Virus record (IMG/VR): IMGVR_UViG_3300021124_000001
DNA: 64,000 bases
Reading direction: 5' to 3' (one strand)
Source of the DNA: a virus
Lineage: Duplodnaviria; Caudoviricetes
A program made the position numbers and the translations under genes. The first letter of the stretch is position 1, and every line of letters begins with the position of its first letter. Of the stretch, positions 23,907 through 36,042 are shown piece after piece. The notes beneath the pieces were generated by a model. It had not been told where the DNA came from. It saw nothing but the letters and a program-made list of their open reading frames with translations, and made no database searches.

Positions 23907-24066
23907 ATATAAGACAGGCCCACCTTAGGGCTGTTTGACGTTCACGGTAAAAGGCGTCCGGGCAATTGCACTGTCACCCGTTAGTTGACCCTGTATTAAG
24001 TAAGCAGGACTACGATACGCCTTCGGGGTATCAATTTTATTAACTCGCTTAATTAAGGAGCAAACT
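23902..24066 (+). promoter_or_regulatory. Late promoter plus multi-hairpin 5' leader ending in a ROSE-like RNA thermometer
   Basis: TATAAATA 23902-23909; five hairpins; CTC-G-CTT/AAG-GAG (24044-24060) sequesters the SD with a bulged G. Confidence 0.65.
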
Positions 24067-24507
24067 ATGACATACATGAAAGATGTATTCGGCCGTGATC
24101 TTTTCAGTCAATTTATTGGCTATGAGGACACAATCAACACCTTGCGTAAAGCAACGGAACAAGCCACAAAAGCAATTGGCTACCCTCCATACAATATCAA
24201 ACAAATCAAAGATAACAAATACGTTATCGAAATGGCTGTTGCTGGATTTTCTAAGTCCGATATTGAACTTACAATGGAAGGTAACAAGTTGACCATCAAA
24301 GGTTCAACCAAGGATAACGAGAATGAAACATTCTTGTACCAAGGTATTGCGAACCGTGCATTTGAACGTACATTCACACTCAACGACAAAGTTGAAATCA
24401 AGGACGCTCAGATGGTTAATGGTATGCTAAAAGTCTGGCTTGAAAACATCATCAAGACTCAAGATGCTATCAAGAAAATTGCCATCAAAGGTGACTCTGA
24501 TGAATAA
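24067..24507 (+). CDS. Small heat shock protein (Hsp20/IbpA family)
   Basis: YPPYNI, IEMAVAGF, YQGIANRAF.RTF, A...NGML. Confidence 0.93.
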   Translation: MTYMKDVFGRDLFSQFIGYEDTINTLRKATEQATKAIGYPPYNIKQIKDNKYVIEMAVAGFSKSDIELTMEGNKLTIKGSTKDNENETFLYQGIANRAFERTFTLNDKVEIKDAQMVNGMLKVWLENIIKTQDAIKKIAIKGDSDE

Positions 24508-24577
24508 TTGGTGGCCTGTCTCCGATGAGGAGTGGGAACGCCTCAACTATCCTGAAAAGTTTCAGGACAAGAAGTAA
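24500..24577 (+). CDS. Putative 25-aa small protein MNNWWPVSDEEWERLNYPEKFQDKK
   Basis: Overlaps hsp20 stop, AAGGTG RBS, ends just before terminator. Confidence 0.4.
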   Translation: MNNWWPVSDEEWERLNYPEKFQDKK

Positions 24578-24580
24578 ACA

Positions 24581-24619
24581 AAAAGGGGCCTTGACAGGTC
24601 CCTTTTTTTATGTTATGAT
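24581..24619 (+). terminator. Terminator hairpin overlapping a sigma70 promoter
   Basis: AAAAGGGGCC-TTGACA-GGTCCCTTTTTTT; the loop TTGACA lies 17 nt from TG-n-TATGAT. Confidence 0.75.
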
Positions 24620-24626
24620 TCGTTCT

Positions 24627-24830
24627 ATGAAAACTACTATCAACAAACCAATCAAATTACGGAACCGTGTTAACCCCACGGAGTTCTATTGGACTTATTC
24701 GTCTTGGGAATCTAATTTTGTGGATGGTGTGGAGTTTCTGCCTGTTACAAAGTTTGATCCATCGGATAACCGTACAAAGCAATTATATTATGTTCGTAAA
24801 GACTCTTTGGAGAAAGTGAAAAATGTCTAA
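24627..24830 (+). CDS. Hypothetical protein (probably leaderless)
   Basis: ATG 8 nt after the -10 hexamer; MKTTINKPIKLRNRVNPTE... Confidence 0.55.
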   Translation: MKTTINKPIKLRNRVNPTEFYWTYSSWESNFVDGVEFLPVTKFDPSDNRTKQLYYVRKDSLEKVKNV

Positions 24831-25110
24831 GAAATTGTACCTTGTGGAAACCATTTCGATGTTTCGTATGCGTTATGTTATTGAATGTGATGAAGAAGGT
24901 CATGCATTGGATGAAGTAACTGTGCACGCCACTGGTGGAGAATCTCTCAAAGAGTTTTCTCAACAACACCTGGATGAAGTTATTAGTTCAAGTCGTGAAA
25001 TTTCAAGAATTGATTATCTTGATTTGTTCGATAAAGACAATGATTATCTGAGTAAATGGTCTGAAGAACAAAAAATGGATTACATCAATAAAATCGATTA
25101 CAAAGACTAA
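24823..25110 (+). CDS. Hypothetical protein
   Basis: 95-aa ORF with GGAG RBS, overlapping upstream stop. Confidence 0.65.
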   Translation: MSKKLYLVETISMFRMRYVIECDEEGHALDEVTVHATGGESLKEFSQQHLDEVISSSREISRIDYLDLFDKDNDYLSKWSEEQKMDYINKIDYKD

Positions 25111-25134
25111 ATAAAATATATTTAGGAGATTATA

Positions 25135-25431
25135 ATGGCCCTTACAGTAACAACTCAAATAACAAAACCCGAATCTGCAATTTTTTGGAGATATTCGGAT
25201 ACTGATGCCTATACAAGATATGTAAATATAATTTCAAATTATCCAGGCGTAATTAGTTTTACTGAAAGTGAGCCAACGAATACCTCAATTACTTCTGTTA
25301 CAGTTTGTCAGGATGCAAATGTGTGGACTTCACTTTTGTCTGCATTAGCGGAAAATGACGATTGTAAAGCAAGAAAAACTTATAATACAACAAACGGAAT
25401 TGAAGATACTTCAACATTAACTACATCTTAA
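25135..25431 (+). CDS. Hypothetical protein (T-rich, late promoter)
   Basis: CTAAATA plus AGGAG RBS upstream. Confidence 0.55.
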   Translation: MALTVTTQITKPESAIFWRYSDTDAYTRYVNIISNYPGVISFTESEPTNTSITSVTVCQDANVWTSLLSALAENDDCKARKTYNTTNGIEDTSTLTTS

Positions 25432-25436
25432 TAATT

Positions 25437-25511
25437 CCGGCGTTCGTATAATGGAAAATACAGCGGTCTTCTAAGCCGTGAATATGGGTTCGATTCCTTT
25501 ACGCCGGACCA
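25437..25511 (+). tRNA. tRNA-Arg(TCT)
   Basis: CCGGCGT/ACGCCGG acceptor, loop CT-TCT-AA, TTCGATT, encoded CCA. Confidence 0.85.
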
Positions 25512-25516
25512 AACTT

Positions 25517-25591
25517 ACGACCGTAGCATAGGGGTAGTGCCGAGAACTCATAATTCTTACGGGGTTGGTTCGAATCCAACCGGTCGTACCA
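25517..25591 (+). tRNA. tRNA with CAT anticodon (Met or Ile2)
   Basis: ACGACCG/CGGTCGT, loop CT-CAT-AA, TTCGAAT, CCA. Confidence 0.85.
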
Positions 25592-25596
25592 ATAAT

Positions 25597-26031
25597 ATGA
25601 AACAAAAATTTATTGATTATTTCATGGACATAGCCGAAAGGACTGCAAAGTTAAGTACGGCTAAACGTCTTCAAGTTGGTTCTATCATTGTAAAAGATAA
25701 TAGAATCGTTTCCATTGGCTATAATGGCATGCCTCCTGGTTGGACTAATGACTGTGAAGACTTATTATTTTCTCCTGAAACAGGATATCACACCAAAACT
25801 AAGCCAGAAGTCATCCATGCTGAGGCCAATGCGATTGCTAAACTTGCTAAGTCTAGCGAGTCTGGAGATGGTTCCACAATGTTCCTGACACATGCTCCAT
25901 GCATGGACTGTGCTAAACAGATATTCACAGCAGGTATCAATAGGGTTTTTTACAAAAATGAATACCGAAGTGACCAAGGTGTTGTTTTTTTACAACAGTG
26001 TGGAGTGGAAATAGACAAATACTCTAAATAG
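25597..26031 (+). CDS. dCMP deaminase
   Basis: SIGYNG.P.G, HAE.NAI, PCMDC. Confidence 0.92.
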   Translation: MKQKFIDYFMDIAERTAKLSTAKRLQVGSIIVKDNRIVSIGYNGMPPGWTNDCEDLLFSPETGYHTKTKPEVIHAEANAIAKLAKSSESGDGSTMFLTHAPCMDCAKQIFTAGINRVFYKNEYRSDQGVVFLQQCGVEIDKYSK

Positions 26032-26061
26032 GTGTATAATGGCCCCTTTGAAGGAGCACCT

Positions 26062-26571
26062 ATGTCTATTAAGATTGTTGGAAGTCCAGATGCCCGATTT
26101 ACACCTTATGTACACCGAGCAACCAAATTCTTTGCAGATAGTTTATTAACTAAGCAAATGCAAGATAACACCAAGATTGTTGTTAAGTTTAATAACAAGA
26201 TTGCCGATCAAGGATACGCCTCAGTTGAAGGATATAACTCCAAGAATATGCCTAGAGAATTTCTTATTGAGGTTCATCCAGGAATTGGAGCCGCAGAGAT
26301 ATTAAGAACCATTGCACATGAAATGGTGCATGTAAAACAGTTTGCTTATGGTCACACCAACGACACCCTAAGTAAATGGCATGATTTAAAAATCGATTCC
26401 GATAATATGGATTATTGGGATCAACCTTGGGAAATAGAAGCAAATGGTTTAGAATCTGGACTATTGACCAAATTCGCCACAGCAGAGAAGTTGTGGGAAG
26501 TGTTTTCGGAATTTAGGAATCCTAATCTTCCGATGAAGAAACGAAAAATAAAATGGAAAGTTAAAGAATAA
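26062..26571 (+). CDS. Zinc metallopeptidase-like protein
   Basis: AHEMVHVKQ ... QPWEIEA. Confidence 0.7.
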   Translation: MSIKIVGSPDARFTPYVHRATKFFADSLLTKQMQDNTKIVVKFNNKIADQGYASVEGYNSKNMPREFLIEVHPGIGAAEILRTIAHEMVHVKQFAYGHTNDTLSKWHDLKIDSDNMDYWDQPWEIEANGLESGLLTKFATAEKLWEVFSEFRNPNLPMKKRKIKWKVKE

Positions 26572-27122
26572 TGTCTCATCCTGCACAGATTGATTTTGTC
26601 AAAAGAGTTAAACAAGAAAACCCTGATTTTTTTAGTAATAAAAAGGTTATTGAGATTGGTAGTCTAGACATCAATGGAACAATTAGAGATTTTTTCACTG
26701 AGTGTGAATATGTTGGTGTCGATGTTGGTGAGGGACCACATGTTGATGTAGTTTGTCCTGGCCAAGAAGTGGATCATCCAGATAATACATATGATGTGTC
26801 TTGTTCATGTAATTGTTTTGAACATAATCCATATTGGGTTGAAACATTCAGAAACATGCATCGTATGACAAGAGAAGGTGGTTTAGTTTTTGTTTCTGTT
26901 CCAACAACTGGATGTCCAGAACACGGAACACACGGGCATAAACCAGATGATAGTCCATTGACCATTAAACGTGGTTGGAACTATTACAAGAATTTGACAG
27001 AGCAGGATTACCGTGATAACTTTAACCTAGATGAAATGTTTTCGTCTTACAAGTTTGAAGAAGTCCACATTCTAGGAAATCCTGAAGCACATGACATTTA
27101 TTTTTACGGATTTAAAAAATAA
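26571..27122 (+). CDS. Class I SAM-dependent methyltransferase
   Basis: VIEIGSLDING, YVGVD..G..VD, FEH.P.W. Confidence 0.8.
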   Translation: MSHPAQIDFVKRVKQENPDFFSNKKVIEIGSLDINGTIRDFFTECEYVGVDVGEGPHVDVVCPGQEVDHPDNTYDVSCSCNCFEHNPYWVETFRNMHRMTREGGLVFVSVPTTGCPEHGTHGHKPDDSPLTIKRGWNYYKNLTEQDYRDNFNLDEMFSSYKFEEVHILGNPEAHDIYFYGFKK

Positions 27123-27193
27123 TTTGTAAAAACTTGTTTTAAAAATAAAAGTTGTATATATAGAAGTATAGATTAATTTTTTCGGAGTTTATT

Positions 27194-27310
27194 TTGTTGT
27201 CTTTATCGAAATCCTCTTTGCTAACATGTGAATATCGCACACCGTTTATTGGTAGCGATAATCAGTCATGGGCGCATGGTTCAGAGGTTTTTGAAGGTAA
27301 GGACAAATAA
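27194..27310 (+). CDS. Putative attenuator leader peptide (38 aa, all 20 amino acids)
   Basis: GGAG RBS 27184-27187, TTG start; MLSLSKSSLLTCEYRTPFIGSDNQSWAHGSEVFEGKDK*. Confidence 0.6.
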   Translation: MLSLSKSSLLTCEYRTPFIGSDNQSWAHGSEVFEGKDK

Positions 27311-27369
27311 AAGTAAAAGTCCAAGTAAATTTTCAAAAACCTCAGCAACGAAAGTTCTGAGGTTTTTTT
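27284..27369 (+). terminator. Mutually exclusive antiterminator / intrinsic terminator
   Basis: GAGGTTTTTGAA (27284-27295) is the exact complement of TTCAAAAACCTC (27332-27343), which is also the 5' arm of the terminator 27335-27369. Confidence 0.75.
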
Positions 27370-27377
27370 GTTTTGGC

Positions 27378-27490
27378 GTTGTAATCTTACAACACTATGA
27401 AAAAGTTGTTGACATCCTGACCGAACCGTGTACAATAGCATCTTCGGTTGAGTAATCAATCAATTGTTCTTTAAAAAGTTAAGTGTATTT
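27378..27490 (+). promoter_or_regulatory. rrn-like promoter 1: palindrome, TTGACA-16-TACAAT, boxB-like hairpin, boxA
   Basis: GTTGTA-N4-TACAAC 27378-27393; -35 27409-27414; -10 27431-27436; TGTTCTTTAAAA 27465-27476. Confidence 0.75.
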
Positions 27491-27513
27491 TTTTGGCCAT
27501 TCCGCAAGGAGTG

Positions 27514-27604
27514 GCCATACTCAAACGCATTAGATCCCTTTTATACTGTGCTGGACGTACTAAGCTACAGGCGGTATAGATCCCTTTTAATGTGTTTGAG
27601 TATG
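27514..27604 (+). ncRNA. Long-stem RNA cassette 1
   Basis: CATACTCAAACGCATTA / TAATGTGTTTGAGTATG stem; AGATCCCTTTTA present twice inside. Confidence 0.55.
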
Positions 27605-27605
27605 T

Positions 27606-27680
27606 TGGGGAGAAATCGATTGGAGCAGATATTGCGCTTTGACCGCAAGTGATAGGGTTCGATTCCCTACTCCCCTGCCA
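27606..27680 (+). tRNA. tRNA-Gln(TTG)
   Basis: TTGCG-CTTTGAC-CGCAA arm, TTCGATT, GCCA. Confidence 0.8.
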
Positions 27681-27693
27681 AATAAATATATCT

Positions 27694-27879
27694 ATGATAG
27701 TAAATAACATAGTCAACAGATGGGACGTGGTGCAAAGCCAACGCCGACATATAGAGTATCGCACTCTAGAAGATCCTGTAACTCATAAAAAAGTTATAGA
27801 GGTCGAGGTACACCTTTACAATAAAAATGGTGTAGTACAGCCTGTTACTAAGGGAAACTCCGTAGATATAAAAGTATAG
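27694..27879 (+). CDS. Hypothetical protein
   Basis: 61-aa ORF between tRNAs, preceded by TAAATA. Confidence 0.45.
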   Translation: MIVNNIVNRWDVVQSQRRHIEYRTLEDPVTHKKVIEVEVHLYNKNGVVQPVTKGNSVDIKV

Positions 27880-27970
27880 GAAACGTGGCAGAGTCCGGTT
27901 TATTGCACCTGTCTTGAAAACAGACGGCTCTGAGAAGGGTCCGTGAGTTCGAATCTCACCGTTTCCACCA
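27879..27970 (+). tRNA. tRNA-Ser(TGA)
   Basis: GGAAACG/CGTTTCC, CT-TGA-AA, long variable arm, CCA. Confidence 0.9.
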
Positions 27971-27988
27971 ATTTTATAAGGAGGCATT

Positions 27989-28573
27989 ATGCCAGCAGTA
28001 TTTCTAGTAAGTGACACACACTTTGGTCATACTGGTGTGTGCCGATTCATGCAAAACGATGGTGTTACAAAACTTAGGCCATGGACTGATCCAAATGAAA
28101 TGGATGAAGAAATGGTTAAGCGTTGGAACGAAACAGTAAGACCTAACGACAAAGTTTACCATCTTGGTGACGTTGTTATTAACCGTAAAGCACTAAGCAT
28201 TATGAGTAGGCTGAACGGTGATAAAGTTCTTATTCGTGGTAACCATGACATCTTCCGTGATGATGAATACAGACAATACTTCCGTGAACTACGTGCATAC
28301 CATGTAATGAACGGAATGATTCTGTCGCATATTCCAATTCATGAAGCAAGTCTTGGTCGTTTCGGTGTTAACATTCATGGACACCTACATTCAAATCGTG
28401 TGATGAAGAATGATCCATTTGGTCATCGTGAACCAATGATTGACACCAGATACCATTGCGTATGTGTTGAACAGACCGATTTTCGGCCTATTCTTTTTGA
28501 AGATGTTATCAAACGAATCAAAGAAGAAGGTGGTGAGGTTGGTTTCCGTAACGGAAACGGACCCACAATGTAA
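27989..28573 (+). CDS. Calcineurin-like metallophosphoesterase
   Basis: SDTHFGH, LGD, GNHD, SH.P, HGHLH. Confidence 0.9.
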   Translation: MPAVFLVSDTHFGHTGVCRFMQNDGVTKLRPWTDPNEMDEEMVKRWNETVRPNDKVYHLGDVVINRKALSIMSRLNGDKVLIRGNHDIFRDDEYRQYFRELRAYHVMNGMILSHIPIHEASLGRFGVNIHGHLHSNRVMKNDPFGHREPMIDTRYHCVCVEQTDFRPILFEDVIKRIKEEGGEVGFRNGNGPTM

Positions 28574-28575
28574 TT

Positions 28576-28665
28576 GGAGAGTGGGCAGGATGGTAATGCA
28601 CCGGTTTGCTAAACCGCAGACTATAGAAATATGGTCACAGGGTTCGACTCCCTGACTCTCCACCA
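28576..28665 (+). tRNA. tRNA-Ser(GCT)
   Basis: GGAGAGT/ACTCTCC, TT-GCT-AA, long variable arm. Confidence 0.88.
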
Positions 28666-28683
28666 AGTTGTGTTGCAACTGAT

Positions 28684-28729
28684 TTGAGGAACTCCCGTCC
28701 ACCTCAATGAAAATGACAAAAAAACGGGG
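28684..28729 (+). ncRNA. Compact H-type pseudoknot
   Basis: TTGAGG/CCTCAA stem; loop TCCCGT pairs with downstream ACGGGG after an A-rich linker. Confidence 0.45.
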
Positions 28730-28739
28730 CCAAATTTAT

Positions 28740-28815
28740 GTACGTGTGACCCGAAAGGCTAGGGAACGGATTGCAAATCCGTTTTATGCAGGTTCGATTC
28801 CTGTCACGTACTCCA
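28740..28815 (+). tRNA. tRNA-Cys(GCA)
   Basis: GTACGTG/CACGTAC, TT-GCA-AA, U73, CCA. Confidence 0.88.
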
Positions 28816-28819
28816 AATT

Positions 28820-28927
28820 CTGTTGTATTTTTACAACAGTGGTTGACAAAGATGTTGGTTGTGCTATAATTCATCCATGAATTGAGAAATCAATCAATTG
28901 TTCTTTAAAAAGTTAAGTGTATTTTTT
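28820..28927 (+). promoter_or_regulatory. rrn-like promoter 2: palindrome, TTGACA-16-TATAAT, boxB-like hairpin, boxA
   Basis: CTGTTGTA-TTTT-TACAACAG; -35 28843-28848; -10 28865-28870; ~45-nt near-exact repeat of promoter 1 leader. Confidence 0.8.
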
Positions 28928-29002
28928 ATTCCGTTGGACTTCTGGTGAGGTCAGTAGGCTTTCAACTTACGCAGGCGAGTTCGATCCTCGTACGGAATAC
29001 CA
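28928..29002 (+). tRNA. tRNA-Glu(TTC)
   Basis: ATTCCGT/ACGGAAT, CT-TTC-AA, CCA. Confidence 0.85.
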
Positions 29003-29200
29003 TTTATTAGTGTTATTGTGGAAAATTTCAGTGAACGCTGGATAGTGAATCTGTCAATGTGTGGTTAATTCGAATAGACTACGTATACAGTTGTTGTAAG
29101 AAAAGACCTTTGGGACGCCTTATGGAATAATCTTACACGTTAAAAACAAACGGTGGTACGGTGAAGGCCATCCATAACACAGTAACACTAATAAATGGTA
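28998..29200 (+). ncRNA. Long-stem RNA cassette 2
   Basis: 23-bp stem TACCATTTATTAGTGTTATTGTG / CACAGTAACACTAATAAATGGTA (one G-U) enclosing ~155 nt. Confidence 0.6.
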
Positions 29201-29204
29201 ACAT

Positions 29205-29279
29205 GCGGGTGTAACTCAGAGGCAGAGTATCTGGCTTTTAACCAGAGAGTCGAGATTTCGAAATTCTCCACCCGTACCA
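29205..29279 (+). tRNA. tRNA-Lys(TTT)
   Basis: TCTGG-CTTTTAA-CCAGA, CCA. Confidence 0.85.
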
Positions 29280-29287
29280 AATAATTT

Positions 29288-29364
29288 GCCCTGGTGACGG
29301 AATAGGTATACGTACTGGTCTTAGAAACCAGGTTTTGAGAGTTCGAGTCTCTCCTAGGGCACCA
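29288..29364 (+). tRNA. tRNA-Leu(TAG), short variable arm
   Basis: CTGGT-CTTAGAA-ACCAG, 77 nt. Confidence 0.85.
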
Positions 29365-29365
29365 A

Positions 29366-29506
29366 AGGCAGCGGATAGGTTACATTATCCAGTATGAGTC
29401 GCAAGGTACCGCGGTAAATCCTTGGGCAAGCAACAGTACACTCATGCAATGTAACAGGTGAGCAGTGATCTGCTTCACGGAGATACCTCAAGAATGTTCT
29501 CCACCA
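29366..29506 (+). ncRNA. Structured RNA with pseudoknot ending in an acceptor-like minihelix and CCA
   Basis: GGATA/TATCC hairpin whose loop GTTACAT(T) complements AATGTAAC; ATGAGT/ACTCAT; GGAGA...TCTCC-A-CCA. Confidence 0.5.
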
Positions 29507-29511
29507 ATTTA

Positions 29512-29586
29512 GGTCTGTAAGTGTTCATGGACGCACGTTGGCTTGTCACGCCAAAAGAAGGGGATCGTTACCCCTATAGACCGCCA
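29512..29586 (+). tRNA. tRNA-Asp(GTC), T-loop ATCGTTA
   Basis: TTGGC-TTGTCAC-GCCAA, G73, CCA. Confidence 0.85.
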
Positions 29587-29591
29587 GTTTT

Positions 29592-29666
29592 GCCGATGTA
29601 GCTCAGAGGAAGAGCATTCGCTTGATAAGCGAAAGGCCGACATTTCGAAATTGTCCATCGGTACCA
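29592..29666 (+). tRNA. tRNA-Ile(GAT)
   Basis: TTCGC-TTGATAA-GCGAA, CCA. Confidence 0.85.
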
Positions 29667-29855
29667 GAATCCCGTTACTACTTTCGTTAAAGTAGCGTTT
29701 GATTAGCGAGAGAGATCCGGTGGCAGAAGACCGTTAGCGGAGAAATCCAGAATCTGATAGGCAGTATTCCTCTGCACACAGACGCAAGAATAAAAGGAAT
29801 GGACAGAGTAACCGCTCAATTAAGGGCTTGTGTGGAAACAAGTAGCTTATCCTAA
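29667..29855 (+). ncRNA. Unassigned structured RNA (~190 nt)
   Basis: No convincing ORF; hairpins CTACTTT/AAAGTAG, CGGT/ACCG, GGA-GAAA-TCC, CTTGT/ACAAG. Confidence 0.4.
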
Positions 29856-29859
29856 TTTT

Positions 29860-29944
29860 GGAGATGCCGCCGTAATGGTATGGCAGGAGACTGTAAATCT
29901 TCCGACTTCGGTCACAATAGGTTCGATCCCTATCATCTCCACCA
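29860..29944 (+). tRNA. tRNA-Tyr(GTA)
   Basis: CT-GTA-AA, variable arm GAC-TTCG-GTC, CCA. Confidence 0.88.
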
Positions 29945-29959
29945 ATGTTAATAATTTAT

Positions 29960-30034
29960 GGGGGCAGTAGTGGGCTACGGGTATCCCTTGCAAGGATGCT
30001 GTCTAGAAGGATTCGATTTCCTCGGCCTCCACCA
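29960..30034 (+). tRNA. tRNA-Ala(TGC), atypical D-arm
   Basis: G3:U70 pair, CT-TGC-AA, ACCA. Confidence 0.75.
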
Positions 30035-30051
30035 TAGATATATAAGTTTTT

Positions 30052-30126
30052 GCCGACTTAGCACAGTGGTAGTGCAATCGCCTTGTAAGCGATAGGTCAT
30101 CAGTTCGAATCCGATAGTCGGCACCA
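30052..30126 (+). tRNA. tRNA-Thr(TGT)
   Basis: ATCGC-CTTGTAA-GCGAT, CCA. Confidence 0.9.
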
Positions 30127-30133
30127 GTTTTAT

Positions 30134-30198
30134 GCGGGAGTTTCTAACAACGTTGGGGTCCACCCAATATCTACGTGGAAATCGTAGTTCCCGCTCCA
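30134..30198 (+). ncRNA. Minimal tRNA-Gly-like RNA (65 nt)
   Basis: GCGGGA/TCCCGC-T-CCA acceptor, no D-arm, 5-nt loop G-TCC-A, T-arm CTACG-TGGAAAT-CGTAG. Confidence 0.6.
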
Positions 30199-30205
30199 GT
30201 TTTTT

Positions 30206-30282
30206 CGGAGTGTAGCACAGCCTGGTAGTGCGCCTGCTTTGGGAGCAGGAGGTCGTAGGTTCGAATCCTACTACTCCGACCA
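30206..30282 (+). tRNA. tRNA-Pro(TGG)
   Basis: CCTGC-TTTGGGA-GCAGG, CCA. Confidence 0.92.
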
Positions 30283-30289
30283 TTTTTAT

Positions 30290-30368
30290 TCCCCATAATT
30301 CGAGCGTAGTGCACGGACCGGACTGTTAATCCGAGATTAGCTAGGAGCGTCACCTAGATGGGGAGCCA
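30290..30368 (+). tRNA. tRNA-Asn(GTT), atypical D-arm and T-loop AGCGTCA
   Basis: TCCCCAT/ATGGGGA-G-CCA, CT-GTT-AA. Confidence 0.75.
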
Positions 30369-30372
30369 ATTT

Positions 30373-30447
30373 GGTGATATAGCATAGACGGATATGCGGG
30401 GGTCTCATAAGCCTCAAAGGAAGGATCGTTACCTTCTATCACCACCA
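30373..30447 (+). tRNA. tRNA with CAT anticodon (Met or Ile2), T-loop ATCGTTA
   Basis: GGTGATA/TATCACC, CT-CAT-AA, CCA. Confidence 0.8.
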
Positions 30448-30932
30448 TATAAAAACACATTAGCCTACATCAGTACTAGGACGACTGTGCGATAAGCGGC
30501 TACCTAGATAAGCCCGCTAGTGTGTTTCTATATGGTAACAACGAAGACGACATGGAAAGATAGTGCAAAGGTATACAGTTGGTCTGGTTCGAAACAGGGT
30601 AACCCAATTTTATATTGAGCGTAGCATGACTGGCATCGCACCAGTAGTTAGTGGGTTCGATTCCCTCCGTTGTAATCATATAAAAACACATTCGCTTATA
30701 TTTTAACGGCTTGCAAGGCACGGGCGTATAAGAATATTGAGTGTGTTTCTATATGGTATGTAATGGCAGAAATGCGACCTAGAAGCGAGTGGACGAACAT
30801 GACTGTAGGCCACTAAGGTAGTCAACATTACACATCATATAAAAACACATTAACTCCTACTAGCAGGTGGGTAGGTTTGAAGTTCTGATGCTGAACGAAG
30901 GGTTCGAATCCCATAGTGTGTTTCTATATGGT
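30444..30932 (+). repeat. Three long-stem RNA cassettes (30444-30536, 30675-30757, 30834-30932) with identical arms and different interiors
   Basis: CATATAAAAACACATT ... AGTGTGTTTCTATATGGT occurs three times. Confidence 0.85.
30538..30678 (+). ncRNA. tRNA-like RNA with enlarged central domain
   Basis: ACAACG/CGTTGT closing stem, GGG-TTCGATT-CCC T-arm, second CTGG-TTCGAAA-CAG hairpin. Confidence 0.45.
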
Positions 30933-30937
30933 TTTAT

Positions 30938-31015
30938 GCGCCTCTAGTTCAACTGGATAGAGCACCGGGCTACGAACCCGTGAGGTTGGGGATTCGAATT
31001 CCTCGGGGCGCACCA
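30938..31015 (+). tRNA. tRNA-Arg(ACG)
   Basis: CGGG-CTACGAA-CCCG, CCA. Confidence 0.85.
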
Positions 31016-31033
31016 ATTTTAGGAGTATTAAAT

Positions 31034-31228
31034 ATGAGTGATGGTGGTAAAGGTTCAAATCCTCGACCATATAGTGTATCACAAGAGCAATTTGCTAATA
31101 ATTGGGATGCAATATTTGGTAAGGATAAGAAATCGAAACAAGAGAAGGCTCTTGATGAGTTGGCTCGAATTTCGGATGAGTTGGGACTCCACTATGATGA
31201 TGTGGAGAATCCATTAGTAAAGAAATAA
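31034..31228 (+). CDS. Small hypothetical protein (MSDGGKGS.PRP...W..IF)
   Basis: AGGAG RBS; 64 aa. Confidence 0.65.
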   Translation: MSDGGKGSNPRPYSVSQEQFANNWDAIFGKDKKSKQEKALDELARISDELGLHYDDVENPLVKK

Positions 31229-31229
31229 T

Positions 31230-31303
31230 ATCTCAGTAGTGTAATGGCAGCACAACGATCTCCAAAATCGTTTGTGAGGGTTCGAGTCCTTCCTGGGATG
31301 CCA
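31230..31303 (+). tRNA. tRNA-Trp(CCA)
   Basis: ACGAT-CTCCAAA-ATCGT, GCCA. Confidence 0.87.
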
Positions 31304-31316
31304 ATAAAGGATTGAT

Positions 31317-31805
31317 ATGAAAAATTTCGACATAGAAAAAGTTAAGGAATTCTTGTCAGCACAAGGACCAGATACTAAAGTTTATTTGGGTGCAGACTCA
31401 GAAAGAATTCGTGTAAATGGTGTTTGGTATGCAGATTATGCCTTGGCTGTCGTAGTTCATATTGATGGCCGCCATGGTTGTAAAATCTTTGGTTACGTTG
31501 AACGTGAACTTGATTATGACCACAAAAAATCCAAACCTGCTATGCGTCTGATGTCAGAAGTATACAAGGTTTCAGAATTGTTCCAAAACCTCCAGGACGT
31601 TCTGGAAGACCGTCATGTAGAAGTGCACCTAGACTTGAACAAACAAGACATCCATGGTTCATCCTGTGTTGTCCATCAAGCAATTGGATATATAAAAGGC
31701 ACTTGTAACATGACACCAATGGTTAAACCAGATGCTCCAGCAGCATCATTCTGTGCAGACCGTTTGAAACGGATTCTTGCTGAACAGGAATTGGCTGAAG
31801 CGTAA
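31317..31805 (+). CDS. RNase H-like YkuK (DUF458) family protein
   Basis: VYLGADS, VVH..G.HG, RL..EV, EVHLD, A..AD. Confidence 0.75.
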   Translation: MKNFDIEKVKEFLSAQGPDTKVYLGADSERIRVNGVWYADYALAVVVHIDGRHGCKIFGYVERELDYDHKKSKPAMRLMSEVYKVSELFQNLQDVLEDRHVEVHLDLNKQDIHGSSCVVHQAIGYIKGTCNMTPMVKPDAPAASFCADRLKRILAEQELAEA

Positions 31806-31895
31806 TAGTTCCGGGTTTGTTTACCCCGAGGATGACACGGCGGTTTCGGTGAGATTTAGTTCTCATCGACTCAGGGAGCCTAACGTAAACAATAT

Positions 31896-31969
31896 GCGGG
31901 TATGATGTAAAGGTAGCCTGTGACCTTGCCAAGGTTAGTGTGAGAGTTCGATTCTCTCTACCCGCTCCA
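31896..31969 (+). tRNA. tRNA-Gly(GCC)
   Basis: GCGGGTA/TACCCGC-T-CCA, TT-GCC-AA. Confidence 0.87.
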
Positions 31970-31991
31970 GTTTTTAGAATAGTCCGGCACG

Positions 31992-32042
31992 GACCGAAAG
32001 GCCGCACCGACCGAAAGGCCGCACCGACCGAAAGGCCGCACC
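31992..32042 (+). repeat. Three perfect 17-nt tandem repeats GACCGAAAGGCCGCACC
   Basis: Units at 31992, 32009, 32026; GC-rich against an AT-rich genome. Confidence 0.95.
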
Positions 32043-32114
32043 AAGTATAGCTGGAATTTACCAGTGAACCGGAAAGGAACAGCCGGGTACGGACGTCACG
32101 AGGATAATAAGTCC

Positions 32115-32657
32115 TCACCTATTCAATAAGTTTTTGGGATCTTCACGGAATCGAAAACTTATACTGATTCTGGCCTGATCTGTATCATTACACACCTGAT
32201 GTGGTATTTGATTATCAAACAAGACAGGTGTAGATAAATCAAATTCAGCCACTTGTGTAAATGTAGCTGATGTGTCATATTTCCAATAATTTAATCCTGA
32301 AGGTGTTTTGGACAATATTGGCTCCATATCACAGGTATACATTTTTGTTCGAGGTAAAGCACAATTCTGTATATCAAAATTTAAAGCCAAAGGATTGTTG
32401 ATCTTATTGATAAAATCAATGTGACAATCTTGAATTGTGTTTGGCGGTACAATGATTATTCCGATTGATCGAACGTTTAGTTTTTTACTATCAAACCAGT
32501 CCTTTATTAAAGGACATTTTTCTAATAGTTCCTGGTGTTGAACTTCATGGAATCCATGAACACGACCAGCAATAAAATTATTGACATACGGCCTTAACTG
32601 TGATACAATCTGGTCGTATCCATCAACATTTATATGTGAAAAGTAAAATTTAGTCAT
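32115..32657 (-). CDS. 2OG-Fe(II) oxygenase / double-stranded beta-helix protein
   Basis: HID ... ALNF ... PHQV ... RISISFR; minus-strand late promoter CATAAATA at 32663-32670. Confidence 0.65.
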   Translation of the reverse strand: MTKFYFSHINVDGYDQIVSQLRPYVNNFIAGRVHGFHEVQHQELLEKCPLIKDWFDSKKLNVRSIGIIIVPPNTIQDCHIDFINKINNPLALNFDIQNCALPRTKMYTCDMEPILSKTPSGLNYWKYDTSATFTQVAEFDLSTPVLFDNQIPHQVCNDTDQARISISFRFREDPKNLLNR

Positions 32658-32669
32658 AGCAATATTTAT

Positions 32670-32744
32670 GGTGGTTATAGTGTAGTGGAAGCACCCGACT
32701 CTGTGAAAGTCGTAGTATGGGATCGTTACCCATTAATCACCCCA
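32670..32744 (+). tRNA. tRNA-His(GTG) with G-1, T-loop ATCGTTA
   Basis: CGACT-CTGTGAA-AGTCG, C73, CCA. Confidence 0.85.
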
Positions 32745-32749
32745 AATTT

Positions 32750-32825
32750 GCCTGGTTGCGTAGAGAGGTTATACGTCTCCTTTACACGGAGAGCGATGTA
32801 GGTTCGAGTCCTACACCAGGTACCA
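32750..32825 (+). tRNA. tRNA-Val(TAC)
   Basis: TCTCC-TTTACAC-GGAGA, CCA. Confidence 0.87.
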
Positions 32826-32872
32826 AATTCGCTCTAACACACGGCGTACAATGAGATAAGTGGTGTGTTCTC

Positions 32873-32946
32873 GCTCTCATAGTATAATGGTATTACACAT
32901 CCTTGGTAAGGATGAGAACCAGGCTCGTTTCCTGGTGGGAGCACCA
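32873..32946 (+). tRNA. tRNA-Thr(GGT), T-loop CTCGTTT
   Basis: CATCC-TTGGTAA-GGATG, CCA. Confidence 0.82.
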
Positions 32947-33041
32947 TATGAAAGCATTCTAAACTGGACGCAGGTTCTGTGAAGTAAGACCTCGGGGTAA
33001 TTGCCGAGAAGGTATGGAGAATAAGAATGCTTCCATATGGT
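32943..33041 (+). ncRNA. Long-stem RNA cassette 6
   Basis: ACCATATG-A-AAGCATTCT / AGAATGCTT-C-CATATGGT, same A.C mismatch position as cassettes 3-5. Confidence 0.6.
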
Positions 33042-33051
33042 AAATGCAACT

Positions 33052-33600
33052 CTAGCTGATGTTAGATTTATGTCCTCGTTTTGCGTGTGATAATTTCATA
33101 GCTTCAGACATAGTTTTTTTGTATTTTTCTGTTCTTGGTTTTTGAATTCTAGCTTTTGCCTTTTCAGAAATAGATTTTCTGCCGCTTGCAGTTATTGGTG
33201 ACGGCATAGATTTTAATGTGTTTCGTATTTTATCTTTAGTTTCTTGTGTATGCTTAGTTCCCAATTTTTTATTTCTAAGCATTTCACCGAATTCTATTTT
33301 TATAGAATCGAATAATCTACTATTCATATATCTTTGCTGTTTATCGGTTTTGCCTTTCATTAACATAAAAGCGTGTAACATTTTATAACGATTTGAACCT
33401 GTTGTCATTTTCGTTAACAACAAGTGGCATATAAAATGCTCTCTTGCTGTTAATTTTACTAAATTTTCTTTGGTGTCATTTCCACCAAAAGATTTGGGTA
33501 TTATGTGGTGTCGTTCAAGATATCCTACATTGTTATTTCTTAATTTGGCATTTTTTATTATAGAAAAATACCAGTTTTTATACTTAGAGTTATTAAACAT
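33052..33600 (-). mobile_element. Free-standing HNH homing endonuclease with NUMOD3-type tail
   Basis: ERHHIIPKSFGG....NLVKLTAREHFICHLLL; G.KHT.ETK.KI; TATAAATA on minus strand 33624-33631. Confidence 0.88.
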
Positions 33601-33646
33601 ATTTTACCTTATGTGGTTTGATATATTTATAAATTTTAAATTTTTT

Positions 33647-33725
33647 GGGGGGTGAGCTAGTCTGGTGATTTCAGCGACTGCCTGAAGAGCAGTAGAACTA
33701 GGTTCGATTCCTAGACCTCCCACCA
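33647..33725 (+). tRNA. tRNA-Phe(GAA)
   Basis: ACTGC-CTGAAGA-GCAGT, CCA. Confidence 0.85.
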
Positions 33726-33732
33726 AGATTAT

Positions 33733-33809
33733 GCCTGAGTGATGGAATTGGTATACGTGCTTGATTCAAAATCAAGATTCTGTGGGTTCAAGTCCCACCT
33801 TAGGCACCA
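33733..33809 (+). tRNA. tRNA-Leu(CAA), short variable arm
   Basis: CTTGA-TTCAAAA-TCAAG. Confidence 0.85.
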
Positions 33810-33831
33810 ATAAAGAATACACTTAACTTAT

Positions 33832-33908
33832 GCGGATGTAGCCGAATTGGTATAGGCAACAGACTTAAACCCTGTAATCTGCGAGTTCGAGTCTCGCCTT
33901 CCGCACCA
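33832..33908 (+). tRNA. tRNA-Leu(TAA), short variable arm
   Basis: ACAG-A-CTTAAAC-C-CTGT, CCA. Confidence 0.8.
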
Positions 33909-33921
33909 TATATATACATGT

Positions 33922-33996
33922 AGCAGGCTGGTGAAATGGTATCACAGAGGACTCATAATCCTCAATTCCTAGTTCGACTCTAGGGCACTGCAACCA
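33922..33996 (+). tRNA. Initiator-like tRNA-fMet(CAT)
   Basis: A1.A72 mismatch, CT-CAT-AA, ...GCAACCA end; bulged A in acceptor. Confidence 0.72.
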
Positions 33997-34002
33997 ATTA
34001 CT

Positions 34003-34076
34003 GCGGGGTTCGTATAGTGGTAATACCTTAGCCTTCCAAGCTAAAGCGAGGAGTTCGATTCTCCTACCCCGCTCCA
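34003..34076 (+). tRNA. tRNA-Gly(TCC)
   Basis: TTAGC-CTTCCAA-GCTAA, TCCA. Confidence 0.9.
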
Positions 34077-34077
34077 C

Positions 34078-34572
34078 TTATTTTGTAAGTTCATGGAACA
34101 AAACTGTTCCAAACGGTACTATCACACACAACAACGAAAAAAATAATAAACAAGTCACTATCATTTCACCTTGTTCTTTTTTTCTTTTTCGTTCATATTC
34201 TTCCTGCTCTCTTTGCGCCTTGGCCCTTTCTTTAGCCAACTCAATTCTTTGGCGCATCATGTCTTGATATACTTCACCATTTCCGCTGTAGATTAGTATA
34301 TCTTTTAGTTCTTTTTCATTGTCTCTAAATGTTTTGGCCGCAAAGGCAATCTCAAGTGCCATCTTGTAGATTTCAGCATTGGACCTTGTTGCTTTTTCAG
34401 TTCTTATTTTGTTTGTTGCCATGTACACTTCTGTACTTGCACTATAGAACTTACTGAACTCACCTATTAGTTGGCCAATATCTTGTCCCAGGGCTTTCGC
34501 CTTCTTTATAGTATTCACTGCTTGTTGTGCTGTAGTTATTGCTACAGTTATACTGATAGGGTCAAACATCAA
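34078..34572 (-). CDS. Hypothetical membrane-anchored coiled-coil protein
   Basis: DPISI..A N-terminus; C-terminal TM. Confidence 0.65.
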   Translation of the reverse strand: MMFDPISITVAITTAQQAVNTIKKAKALGQDIGQLIGEFSKFYSASTEVYMATNKIRTEKATRSNAEIYKMALEIAFAAKTFRDNEKELKDILIYSGNGEVYQDMMRQRIELAKERAKAQREQEEYERKRKKEQGEMIVTCLLFFSLLCVIVPFGTVLFHELTK

Positions 34573-34648
34573 TCACCTTCGTAGGTTTGTCTTTATTTCT
34601 CCATTCTAAAATTATAACTTTTGGTCATAAACATCAATCGTTCATGCT

Positions 34649-35236
34649 TTATTTGTTGGCTAATGGATTATCAATAGCCTTTTGAATCTTCTGGTCAACT
34701 TCCTTTTTAAGCACTTCAACTTCTTTACTGATTTCTCGTCTTGCATCGGCCATTTCTTTGCGAATAGCATTGACTTCGGAACGTGCCTTATCTAAATCCT
34801 CACGTATGTCTTTACGTGCTTGTCTCATCTCTTGGTCTGTTTCACGTTGTGAAGTTTTAACTGAACGTTCAATCTGTTCCGTTACAGATTCGTTACGGCG
34901 AATGTCATTCTTCAAATCATTCTTAATGTCTCGTGTGTAATCACCAGTCTTTTGGTTTGTTTCTTCAATCACAGCCAATCGTTTGTCAAATTCGGACAAA
35001 TCTGGTGCAGAATACTCAGAAATCTTCTTCTTCATTGTCTGATAGTCTTTATAAACCTCAAACGCACCATACAAACCACCAAGAGTAGAAGAAACGATTG
35101 TAAATGCAACCATCAATTTTGCTGGAGTAAACTCATAACCACCAATACTGATTACAGTATCTTTACTTGCATACTTCTTAGCGGCCGCTTCAAGTTCATC
35201 AACTTTTGCATTCACATCTTTGATTTCTTCCGTCAT
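34649..35236 (-). CDS. Hypothetical TM plus coiled-coil protein
   Basis: One TM (..STLGGLYGAFEVYK), long heptads, ends ..DNPLANK. Confidence 0.7.
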   Translation of the reverse strand: MTEEIKDVNAKVDELEAAAKKYASKDTVISIGGYEFTPAKLMVAFTIVSSTLGGLYGAFEVYKDYQTMKKKISEYSAPDLSEFDKRLAVIEETNQKTGDYTRDIKNDLKNDIRRNESVTEQIERSVKTSQRETDQEMRQARKDIREDLDKARSEVNAIRKEMADARREISKEVEVLKKEVDQKIQKAIDNPLANK

Positions 35237-35248
35237 CTAATACTCCAT

Positions 35249-35671
35249 TTATTTTTCAAACTTTAAGGATCTCAAGTTGTTCAATTCACTTTCTAACTTT
35301 TGAATTTCAATTCTTCTCTTTTCCAATTCAAGTTGATATAAAATATCACAATCAACTCTTCCCTTAGGCATACCAATTGGTATAACTATTCTACCATAAA
35401 CACCAACATTTTTTGATTGTGGGTTTGTACTTGGGTCGGTTGAAATTGTTGTGGTTGATGTTGTCGTATTATTGTTACTCAGAACACCAACAACACCAAA
35501 TTCAACGTTAACACCAGAACCAATGGCCATCGTACAATCTAAATCACCAGCTCTAAATCTATCTGATTGGTAATTTCCTGGTGCACTAGGAATTGCCAAA
35601 TTAAGAGATCCGTTCTGTGCTTCACTTAAATTACAAAACATCAACAATGCAATAATGATATAATGTTTCAT
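35249..35671 (-). CDS. Secreted hypothetical protein
   Basis: Signal peptide MKHYIIIALL..SEA; two Cys; C-terminal coiled coil. Confidence 0.65.
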   Translation of the reverse strand: MKHYIIIALLMFCNLSEAQNGSLNLAIPSAPGNYQSDRFRAGDLDCTMAIGSGVNVEFGVVGVLSNNNTTTSTTTISTDPSTNPQSKNVGVYGRIVIPIGMPKGRVDCDILYQLELEKRRIEIQKLESELNNLRSLKFEK

Positions 35672-36042
35672 TTCACTTTTGAACAAATTTTTGAATATAT
35701 TACAGTGTTCTGTAGAGCATCTTTTTTAATCTTAGATTCGGTACAAATATAAGTAACTTTTTTTACATCCTCTTTCTTAACATAAACATTAATATCTTTT
35801 GTTTGTAGATATTTCACATATATGATTTTATTTTCTGATGCAAACGGAACTCCATTCCAATCAGCATCAAAAACAGACAATTCATAATACTCAACTTCTT
35901 TCCTTTTATTAAACAACTGCATTTTTGTATACATAACTCCTTCAATAAAAGAATATTGGAAGGTTGGATATGTCGGCAAAAACTGATGAGCATTTACATA
36001 CCCACTAAACATCAAAAGAAGCATAACGACATAACGAAACAT
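35668..36042 (-). CDS. Secreted beta-rich protein, possibly pilus-chaperone-like
   Basis: Signal peptide ending VNA|HQ; terminal Cys pair. Confidence 0.55.
   Translation of the reverse strand: MFRYVVMLLLMFSGYVNAHQFLPTYPTFQYSFIEGVMYTKMQLFNKRKEVEYYELSVFDADWNGVPFASENKIIYVKYLQTKDINVYVKKEDVKKVTYICTESKIKKDALQNTVIYSKICSKVK

Follow-up and report, generated by a model that had tools for sequence, protein, structure and literature searches.

A putative ribosome-mediated attenuator with a nearly all-amino-acid leader peptide upstream of tRNA arrays in freshwater T4-like phages

Attenuators of amino acid operons (trpL, hisL, leuL and pheL, and the multivalent thrL and ilvL) are the described systems that the phage element analyzed here most resembles in layout. 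PMC1183508 describes classical attenuators as using runs of regulatory codons, with a ribosome stall leading to read-through and full translation leading to termination. Like these systems, the phage element combines a leader that is predicted to be translated with an intrinsic terminator, and the 5′ arm of that terminator has an alternative partner in the 3′-terminal part of the leader ORF, so that the position of the ribosome would decide between the two structures. It differs from them in having no run of cognate codons but about one codon for each of 19–20 amino acids, in being phage-borne, and in that the genes it would control encode tRNAs and not biosynthetic enzymes. In addition, most phage copies lack the protector (1:2) helix of the amino acid operon attenuators, so untranslated phage leader RNA should read through.

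T-box riboswitches, too, respond to tRNA status with a choice of terminator or antiterminator ahead of genes connected with translation. A T-box, however, acts by direct binding of one particular uncharged tRNA and requires no ORF, whereas the phage leader keeps an ORF and has no T-box match. A second resemblance is to uORFs that report translation stress, in which a short ORF senses stalling in general; the E. coli toiL uORF upstream of topAI reports ribosome stalling at several positions and alters the downstream RNA structure (bioRxiv 10.1101/682021), and the antibiotic-responsive leaders of vmlR, erm and mef/msr belong with it. The output of toiL is unmasking of a ribosome binding site plus relief of Rho-dependent termination and its known inputs are antibiotics, whereas the phage output would be a choice between intrinsic terminator and antiterminator; unlike toiL, the composition of the phage leader points to the supply of charged tRNA as the input. 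Finally, the locus resembles the boxB/boxA leaders of rrn operons, since a boxA-like TGTTCTTTAA(A/C)AA follows a small hairpin between the switch and tRNA-Gln, but this module is separate and downstream, and it would confer resistance to later terminators and not sense translation. In full-text literature searches, neither tRNA genes controlled by a leader peptide nor a leader containing all amino acids turned up.

The window (the whole stretch of DNA analyzed, 64,000 nucleotides of IMG/VR record IMGVR_UViG_3300021124_000001) comes from an uncultured T4-like myovirus, a lake phage in which tail sheath, DnaB-like helicase and family B polymerase genes are present; the polymerase is about 51% identical to those of cyanomyoviruses. 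IMG/VR contains many related contigs, from T4-like freshwater phages. The INPHARED phages gave no DNA match to the window, near or distant, and no match to the leader peptide, and thus no cultured carrier was found there; the GTDB species genomes, searched with the peptide alignment of the window's family (F1, below), gave no relative. A profile search of Pfam-A and PHROGs with the leader peptide gave no family at E values up to 10. A cmscan search of positions 24000–36000 at E values up to 1 returned no T-box hit, and at the leader the sole Rfam match was sub-threshold, partial and terminator-like. The same region holds a weak, sub-threshold match to the ROSE_3 thermometer-like family at 24011–24072 (22.7 bits, E 0.46), directly upstream of hsp20 (24067–24507).

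The elements of the unit, from the leader promoter to the first tRNA gene of the downstream array, all lie on the + strand. The leader ORF (27194–27310), which has homologues in 42 loci of its family and in diverged families, is 38 codons long, starts with TTG, ends with TAA at 27308–27310 and contains all 20 amino acids. It is preceded by a Shine-Dalgarno GGAG at 27184–27187, 6 nt before the start codon, and the same spacing is conserved in the SD-type relatives. The original prediction, made from the letters of the window, had described this ORF and its composition, and its description proved accurate on re-reading: codons 11–28 give 16 different residues in 18; synonymous codons are sampled (Ser is encoded by five different codons and Leu by three, and Lys, Glu and Asp each by both of theirs); and GAGGTTTTTGAA at 27284–27295 is the exact reverse complement of 27332–27343. 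Met occurs solely as the initiator, read from TTG.

The original prediction also asked how often such a peptide arises. A random-codon model with the base composition of the window and 38 codons gives P = 0.0052 for all 20 amino acids, and 2 of the 323 window ORFs of 30–45 amino acids have 20 types, with about 1.7 expected; in the window alone, the presence of all 20 is not significant. It is only conservation among the relatives that makes it so. The diverse core of the peptide is unusual even within the window, since none of the 15,336 17-mers of its real proteins has at least 16 different residues. In two-fold pyrimidine boxes, 75–81% of the codons in the leaders end in U versus 58% in window genes; for Tyr, Phe, Ile and Asp, U-ending codons make up about 76–100% in the leader ORFs of families F1, F2 and F4 (below) versus 53–68% in window genes. 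This bias is compatible with a tuning of sensitivity, but compositional effects could equally explain it.

The predicted RNA switch lies at and just beyond the end of the ORF. Segment B (27283–27297), within the 3′ end of the ORF, is the 5′ strand of a putative antiterminator and is assigned from duplex energy and compensatory changes. Segment C (27330–27345), assigned from duplex energies, is common to the antiterminator, where it pairs with B, and to the terminator, where it pairs with D. The intrinsic terminator, a C:D hairpin plus U-run at 27335–27369 that is assigned from sequence and fold energy (−13.0 kcal/mol), was correctly placed by the original prediction; a consensus terminator scanner missed it, its loop being longer than the 8-nt limit of the tool. 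The B:C duplex of the window has an energy of −19.4 kcal/mol (z −6.2 versus shuffles). C shares 7 nt with the 5′ arm of the terminator in the window and 6–10 nt in nearly all relatives, and the B:C and C:D helices, as predicted structures, are mutually exclusive. The leader as a whole folds far better than shuffles, and the terminated product, an RNA of about 200 nt, would be strongly folded (z −6.9).

A covarying antiterminator/terminator pair was foreseen by the original prediction, and it is conserved among the relatives with compensatory changes (e.g., GGGTCTTATGT/ACATAAGACCC, GGGTTTTGTG/CACAAAACCC and GGGGTTGTGGA/TCCACAACCCC). B:C was assessed by per-sequence duplex energies and by a fixed-column pair count. 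Across 64 distinct sequences the duplex has a mean energy of −19.1 kcal/mol and a mean z of −3.8, with z < −2 in 92% of them, and the terminators of the relatives average −12.9 kcal/mol. Folding without strand D gives B:C pairing in the MFE structure of 97 of 109 sequences. In a plain MAFFT alignment, 74.7% of the cells at the window's 12 B:C pairs are paired versus 38–59% with slid partners, and the covariation score of B:C is 0.224 versus 0.161 in shuffles (0/500). RNAalifold on a MAFFT alignment of B through C found no consensus; the 3′ strand is 1–2 nt out of register between families. The 3′ end of strand B lies at most 3 nt beyond and at most 11 nt short of the last sense nucleotide of the ORF; B adjoins the stop codon, so that a ribosome terminating there would cover it.

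A fourth segment, the 1:2 protector of a trp-like arrangement, was considered as a feature of the family and rejected: the MFE fold of the window supports it, but the relatives do not conserve it. In the window, segment A (27211–27222, codons 6–9) is complementary to B in the full-length MFE fold and is a possible protector. The A:B duplex has an energy of −11.8 kcal/mol (z −1.9), and the protector helix is about as stable there as B:C; A is specific to the window and to part of its family. The mean z of A:B is −0.3 overall; the helix is weak in the SD-type members of F1 (−0.8) and in F2 (−1.4 to −1.6) and absent in F4 and F9. In most relatives the design comprises three segments.

Transcription of the leader could begin at a putative promoter at 27134–27162 (TTGTTT, 17 nt, TATATA), recognized by sequence reading and weak by consensus. 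Its −10 block AAGTTGTATATATAG is conserved in SD-type relatives; the promoter is below the threshold of the scanner, and the promoter scan of the window predicted no strong leader promoter. Transcripts from the upstream operon can also enter the leader, because the methyltransferase gene ending at 27122 is not followed by a terminator.

Beyond the terminator lies a palindrome, GTTGTA-ATCT-TACAAC (27378–27393), placed between the terminator and the array promoter, just upstream of the −35 element; in relatives its stem is kept and its loop is variable, and it may act as an operator or form a hairpin in the RNA of read-through transcripts. The promoter scan then finds a near-consensus sigma-70 promoter at 27409–27436 (TTGACA, 16 nt, TACAAT) and another at 28843–28870, in agreement with the two sigma70 promoters originally noted after the terminator. 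The array promoter is followed, by sequence reading, by an rrn-like boxB/boxA module at 27448–27477, in which a boxB hairpin, TTGA-GTAA-TCAA (27448–27459), precedes a boxA-like TGTTCTTTAAAAA (27465–27477). The boxA-like motif, which recurs in relatives, is one that we take to resemble the E. coli rrn boxA consensus. In F4 relatives (e.g., L114:4971–5023) the terminator and tRNA-Gln are separated directly by these boxB/boxA-like signals, and no promoter intervenes. Between boxA and tRNA-Gln the window has a long-stem structured segment with a repeated word TAGATCCCTTTTA (27480–27605), which is longer than the matching spacer in most relatives.

The first gene of the downstream array, tRNA-Gln(TTG), was found by ARAGORN at 27606–27680 and begins a series of 24 genes. 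The original count of 26 downstream tRNA genes covering every amino acid needs correction: ARAGORN does find 26 genes, but two of them lie upstream (25437–25591) and together the genes cover 18 amino acids. No tRNA-Ala and no tRNA-Asn are among the 26 at the default threshold. Relaxing the threshold brings in a tRNA-Ala(TGC) candidate (29960–30034) and a Phe(GAA)-like gene (30844–30924), both in gaps of the array, but even then no tRNA-Asn is found on the array strand. Since the array reads almost every codon box, a comparison of leader codons with the phage tRNA set is uninformative. In every relative with enough sequence, tRNA-Gln is the first tRNA after the leader.

The families differ in how the array can be entered. 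All 33 distinct terminator-to-tRNA intervals of the window's family contain a near-consensus promoter, and F2 and F9 likewise have one between the terminator and tRNA-Gln. Because of that promoter, the switch in the window's family, as in F2 and F9, can only add to array expression; the original caveat that it would add to expression rather than gate it holds for this whole family, but not for most F4 copies. In F4, 23 of the 32 distinct intervals are 53–58 nt long, hold only the small hairpin and boxA-like motif, and are promoter-free, and in the F3 variant tRNA-Ser or tRNA-Trp starts 7–19 nt after the terminator, again with no promoter in the interval. In these phages there is no visible way into the first tRNAs other than the leader promoter and switch.

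Loci of the F1 family were gathered by blastn and a peptide-pattern scan. Diverged families were sought among terminators shortly upstream of tRNAs in all fetched loci, and further by a peptide-blind, promoter-only scan and by scans seeded with two diverged groups. An objective pipeline took small ORFs with a start signal whose stop lies at most 80 nt before a perfect-stem terminator with a tRNA downstream. The homologous region of F1 occurs in 60 loci, from which 42 different complete ORFs with 34 distinct peptide sequences were obtained, and the residue order of its core motif EYRTPFIGSDNQ.W is kept across all 34. At the nucleotide level the core of about 42 nt is near-invariant, including several synonymous sites, and the changes that do occur are almost all at third positions. 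Third codon positions vary most over the leader ORF, and the coding signature there is modest. The order of elements in F1 is always the ORF, terminator, palindrome, sigma-70 promoter, tRNA-Gln(TTG) and the rest of the array.

Families F1, F2, F4 and F9 are diverged, with different sequences and scrambled residue order (examples are window:27194–27307 in F1, L232:4092–4199 in F2, L114:4795–4914 in F4 and L220:8669–8794 in F9), and the conserved core of F1 is not common to F4 or F9. Two start modes are used, GGAG followed by TTG or GTG, and a leaderless ATG 6–7 nt after TATAAT (with a −35 element at 17 nt). The word that combines promoter and leaderless start, TATATAATAACACTATG, also precedes ordinary long ORFs in the phages L220–L305 (e.g., L226, L222 and L235), which appear from this pattern to use leaderless mRNAs widely. 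Among 131 terminator-bearing regions upstream of tRNA-Gln, 121 retain an ORF that has a start signal; of the ten misses, several are failures of the start-codon rule. The leader and B:C persist whatever gene precedes them; the methyltransferase gene, for instance, is absent in L156, L082 and L146.

The original prediction expected a short ORF with variable sequence and conserved amino acid diversity upstream of related tRNA arrays, and alignment of these regions bears this out. Among the 93 distinct peptides (33–45 amino acids) found before tRNA-Gln, 57 contain 20 types of amino acid and 34 contain 19, with one peptide each at 18 and 17. For random peptides, the frequency of 20 types is 0.1–3% with the pooled composition of the leaders and 0.2–6% with uniform composition. 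Other small ORF-plus-terminator units of the same loci mostly have 13–17 types. Loci fetched through neighboring proteins only, blind to the leader, gave 13 modules, and all 13 have 19–20 types. No codon forms a run in the leaders and many amino acids occur about once each; the mean number of copies per leader is about 1.0 for Trp, Tyr, His and Val and 1.2–1.3 for Asp, Cys and Gln. Upstream of strand B alone, 80 of the 93 peptides already have 19–20 types, and Val is missing from that part in 48 of the 93; the window's leader has its single Val codon within B. The F3 variant (L003:3551–3640 within the region L003:3551–3720, L098:4049–4230, L103 and L149), found by the pipeline and the scans, is an exception, with 17 types in 30–37 amino acids; it lacks Ala, Gly and, in addition, Ile or Gln.

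A separate conserved small ORF ending in NWWPVSDEEWERLNYPEKF lies at 24440–24577 of the window and was used as an internal control. In its relatives (e.g., L160:768 and L281:6599) a terminator stands about 200–560 nt before tRNA-Arg or tRNA-Met, and the diversity of this ORF is ordinary, with 13–14 types.

The numbers of complete peptides were compared with those obtained by shuffling residues within alignment columns, family by family, a procedure that ignores relatedness and so inflates significance. The shuffles gave 11.6 complete peptides versus 20 observed in F1 (observed number reached in 0/2000), 7.9 versus 13 in F2 (7/2000) and 5.5 versus 23 in F4 (0/2000); a residue lost at one site therefore tends to recur elsewhere in the same peptide. 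A conservative nearest-neighbor drift simulation gave modest values, with P from 0.002 to 0.93 per cluster. Because the shuffles ignore kinship and the drift simulation is only moderately significant, the strongest argument for completeness is its retention across families in which residue order is scrambled, and on this comparison we regard the completeness of leader composition as being under selection.

We consider it probable that the element works as a ribosome-mediated attenuator of transcription, with a leader peptide composed so as to offer about one codon for nearly every amino acid. Comparison of the sequences establishes the conserved ORF, its selected completeness, the exclusive and covarying helices, and the place of the unit before tRNA arrays; translation of the leader, its coupling to transcription, stalling and read-through are steps that we infer. 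Transcription would start at the leader's own promoter or enter from the upstream operon, and a ribosome would load at the SD/TTG start, or at the leaderless AUG in relatives. A ribosome that kept pace with the polymerase through the approximately 30 codons would sit on B as C emerges; with B masked, C would pair with D and the terminator would stop transcription. If the ribosome were delayed at any codon by scarce charged tRNA, or if no ribosome loaded, B would pair with C, and this would block the terminator and let the polymerase continue into the tRNA array. The original reading of the locus as an attenuator in which a stall antiterminates is supported by the geometry, as the position of the end of B fits termination after full translation and read-through after an earlier stall.

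The element would in this way gauge overall decoding capacity, and faltering decoding would lead to more phage tRNA synthesis. The phage probably raises its own tRNA output upon slow decoding of any codon; this direction of control follows from the geometry of B and the stop codon, and it makes functional sense. That the "one of each" leader is a general gauge, testing nearly every charged tRNA in one passage of the pioneering ribosome and switching on or boosting the tRNA array, is a proposal that we favor with some reserve. The failures of supply that such a gauge would sense could stem from starvation, codon-usage mismatch in a new host, or host defenses that cleave tRNA. Since each amino acid occurs about once, unlike the cognate regulatory codons of classical attenuators, we would expect mainly severe tRNA depletion to be detectable.

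Other explanations of the same features have to be weighed. We think it rather unlikely that the ORF is a small peptide gene with its own promoter and terminator whose product acts in trans, its position before the array and B:C then being a matter of mRNA stability or incidental. Leader peptides can act in trans, as peTrpL does (PMC7298713), the kept order of the F1 core across 34 distinct peptides could mean a specific function of peptide or RNA, and termination would release the strongly folded RNA of about 200 nt as a discrete product. On the other hand, scrambling of residue order between families while completeness is kept is unlike the evolution of a binding motif, and the peptide has no Pfam or PHROG match. 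Moreover, C-terminal residues as different as GGCG, GGSG, EVFE and GSYV all encode the C-complementary strand and so follow the needs of strand B, and in F4 and F3 no promoter for the next tRNAs is visible other than that of the leader unit. A noncoding regulatory RNA, whether riboswitch-like, a tRNA-binding leader or a small RNA, with the reading frame incidental, is unlikely as well. Such an RNA could account for the near-invariance of the approximately 42-nt F1 core at several synonymous sites and for a leader that folds far better than shuffles, and terminator/antiterminator platforms are typical of riboswitches and T-boxes; yet no Rfam family or T-box matches, the variable sites of the core are almost all third positions, and that core is not common to F4 or F9. 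The ORF with its start signal in 121 of the 131 terminator-bearing regions before tRNA-Gln, the convergence of two unrelated initiation modes on one frame, and a completeness that has no explanation at the RNA level also argue for a frame that matters.

An ordinary operon-end terminator after the methyltransferase gene, accompanied by a chance ORF and a chance complement, would be in keeping with the statistics of the window taken singly (P of about 0.005 for all 20 in 38 codons, and 2 of 323 small ORFs) and with the lack of a strong predicted leader promoter there. We consider this very improbable, as the ORF, its completeness and B:C are conserved in more than 90 variants whatever the upstream gene.

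If the attenuator reading is true, completeness of composition under selection would be a sensing principle that has not been described for any attenuator, and it represents an uncommon kind of selection, one for a complete peptide composition and not for a particular sequence. Beyond the rule of "one pathway, one amino acid", leader-peptide attenuation would then include a global reading of translation, and a compact reporter of decoding stress could be made from the element. For the phages themselves, the questions addressed are why they carry large tRNA arrays and how expression of the arrays is timed. An all-amino-acid leader would link tRNA supply to transcription of the tRNA genes as a built-in sensor, and it offers a testable logic for the arrays in terms of homeostasis, buffering of host range and response to tRNA-targeting defenses.
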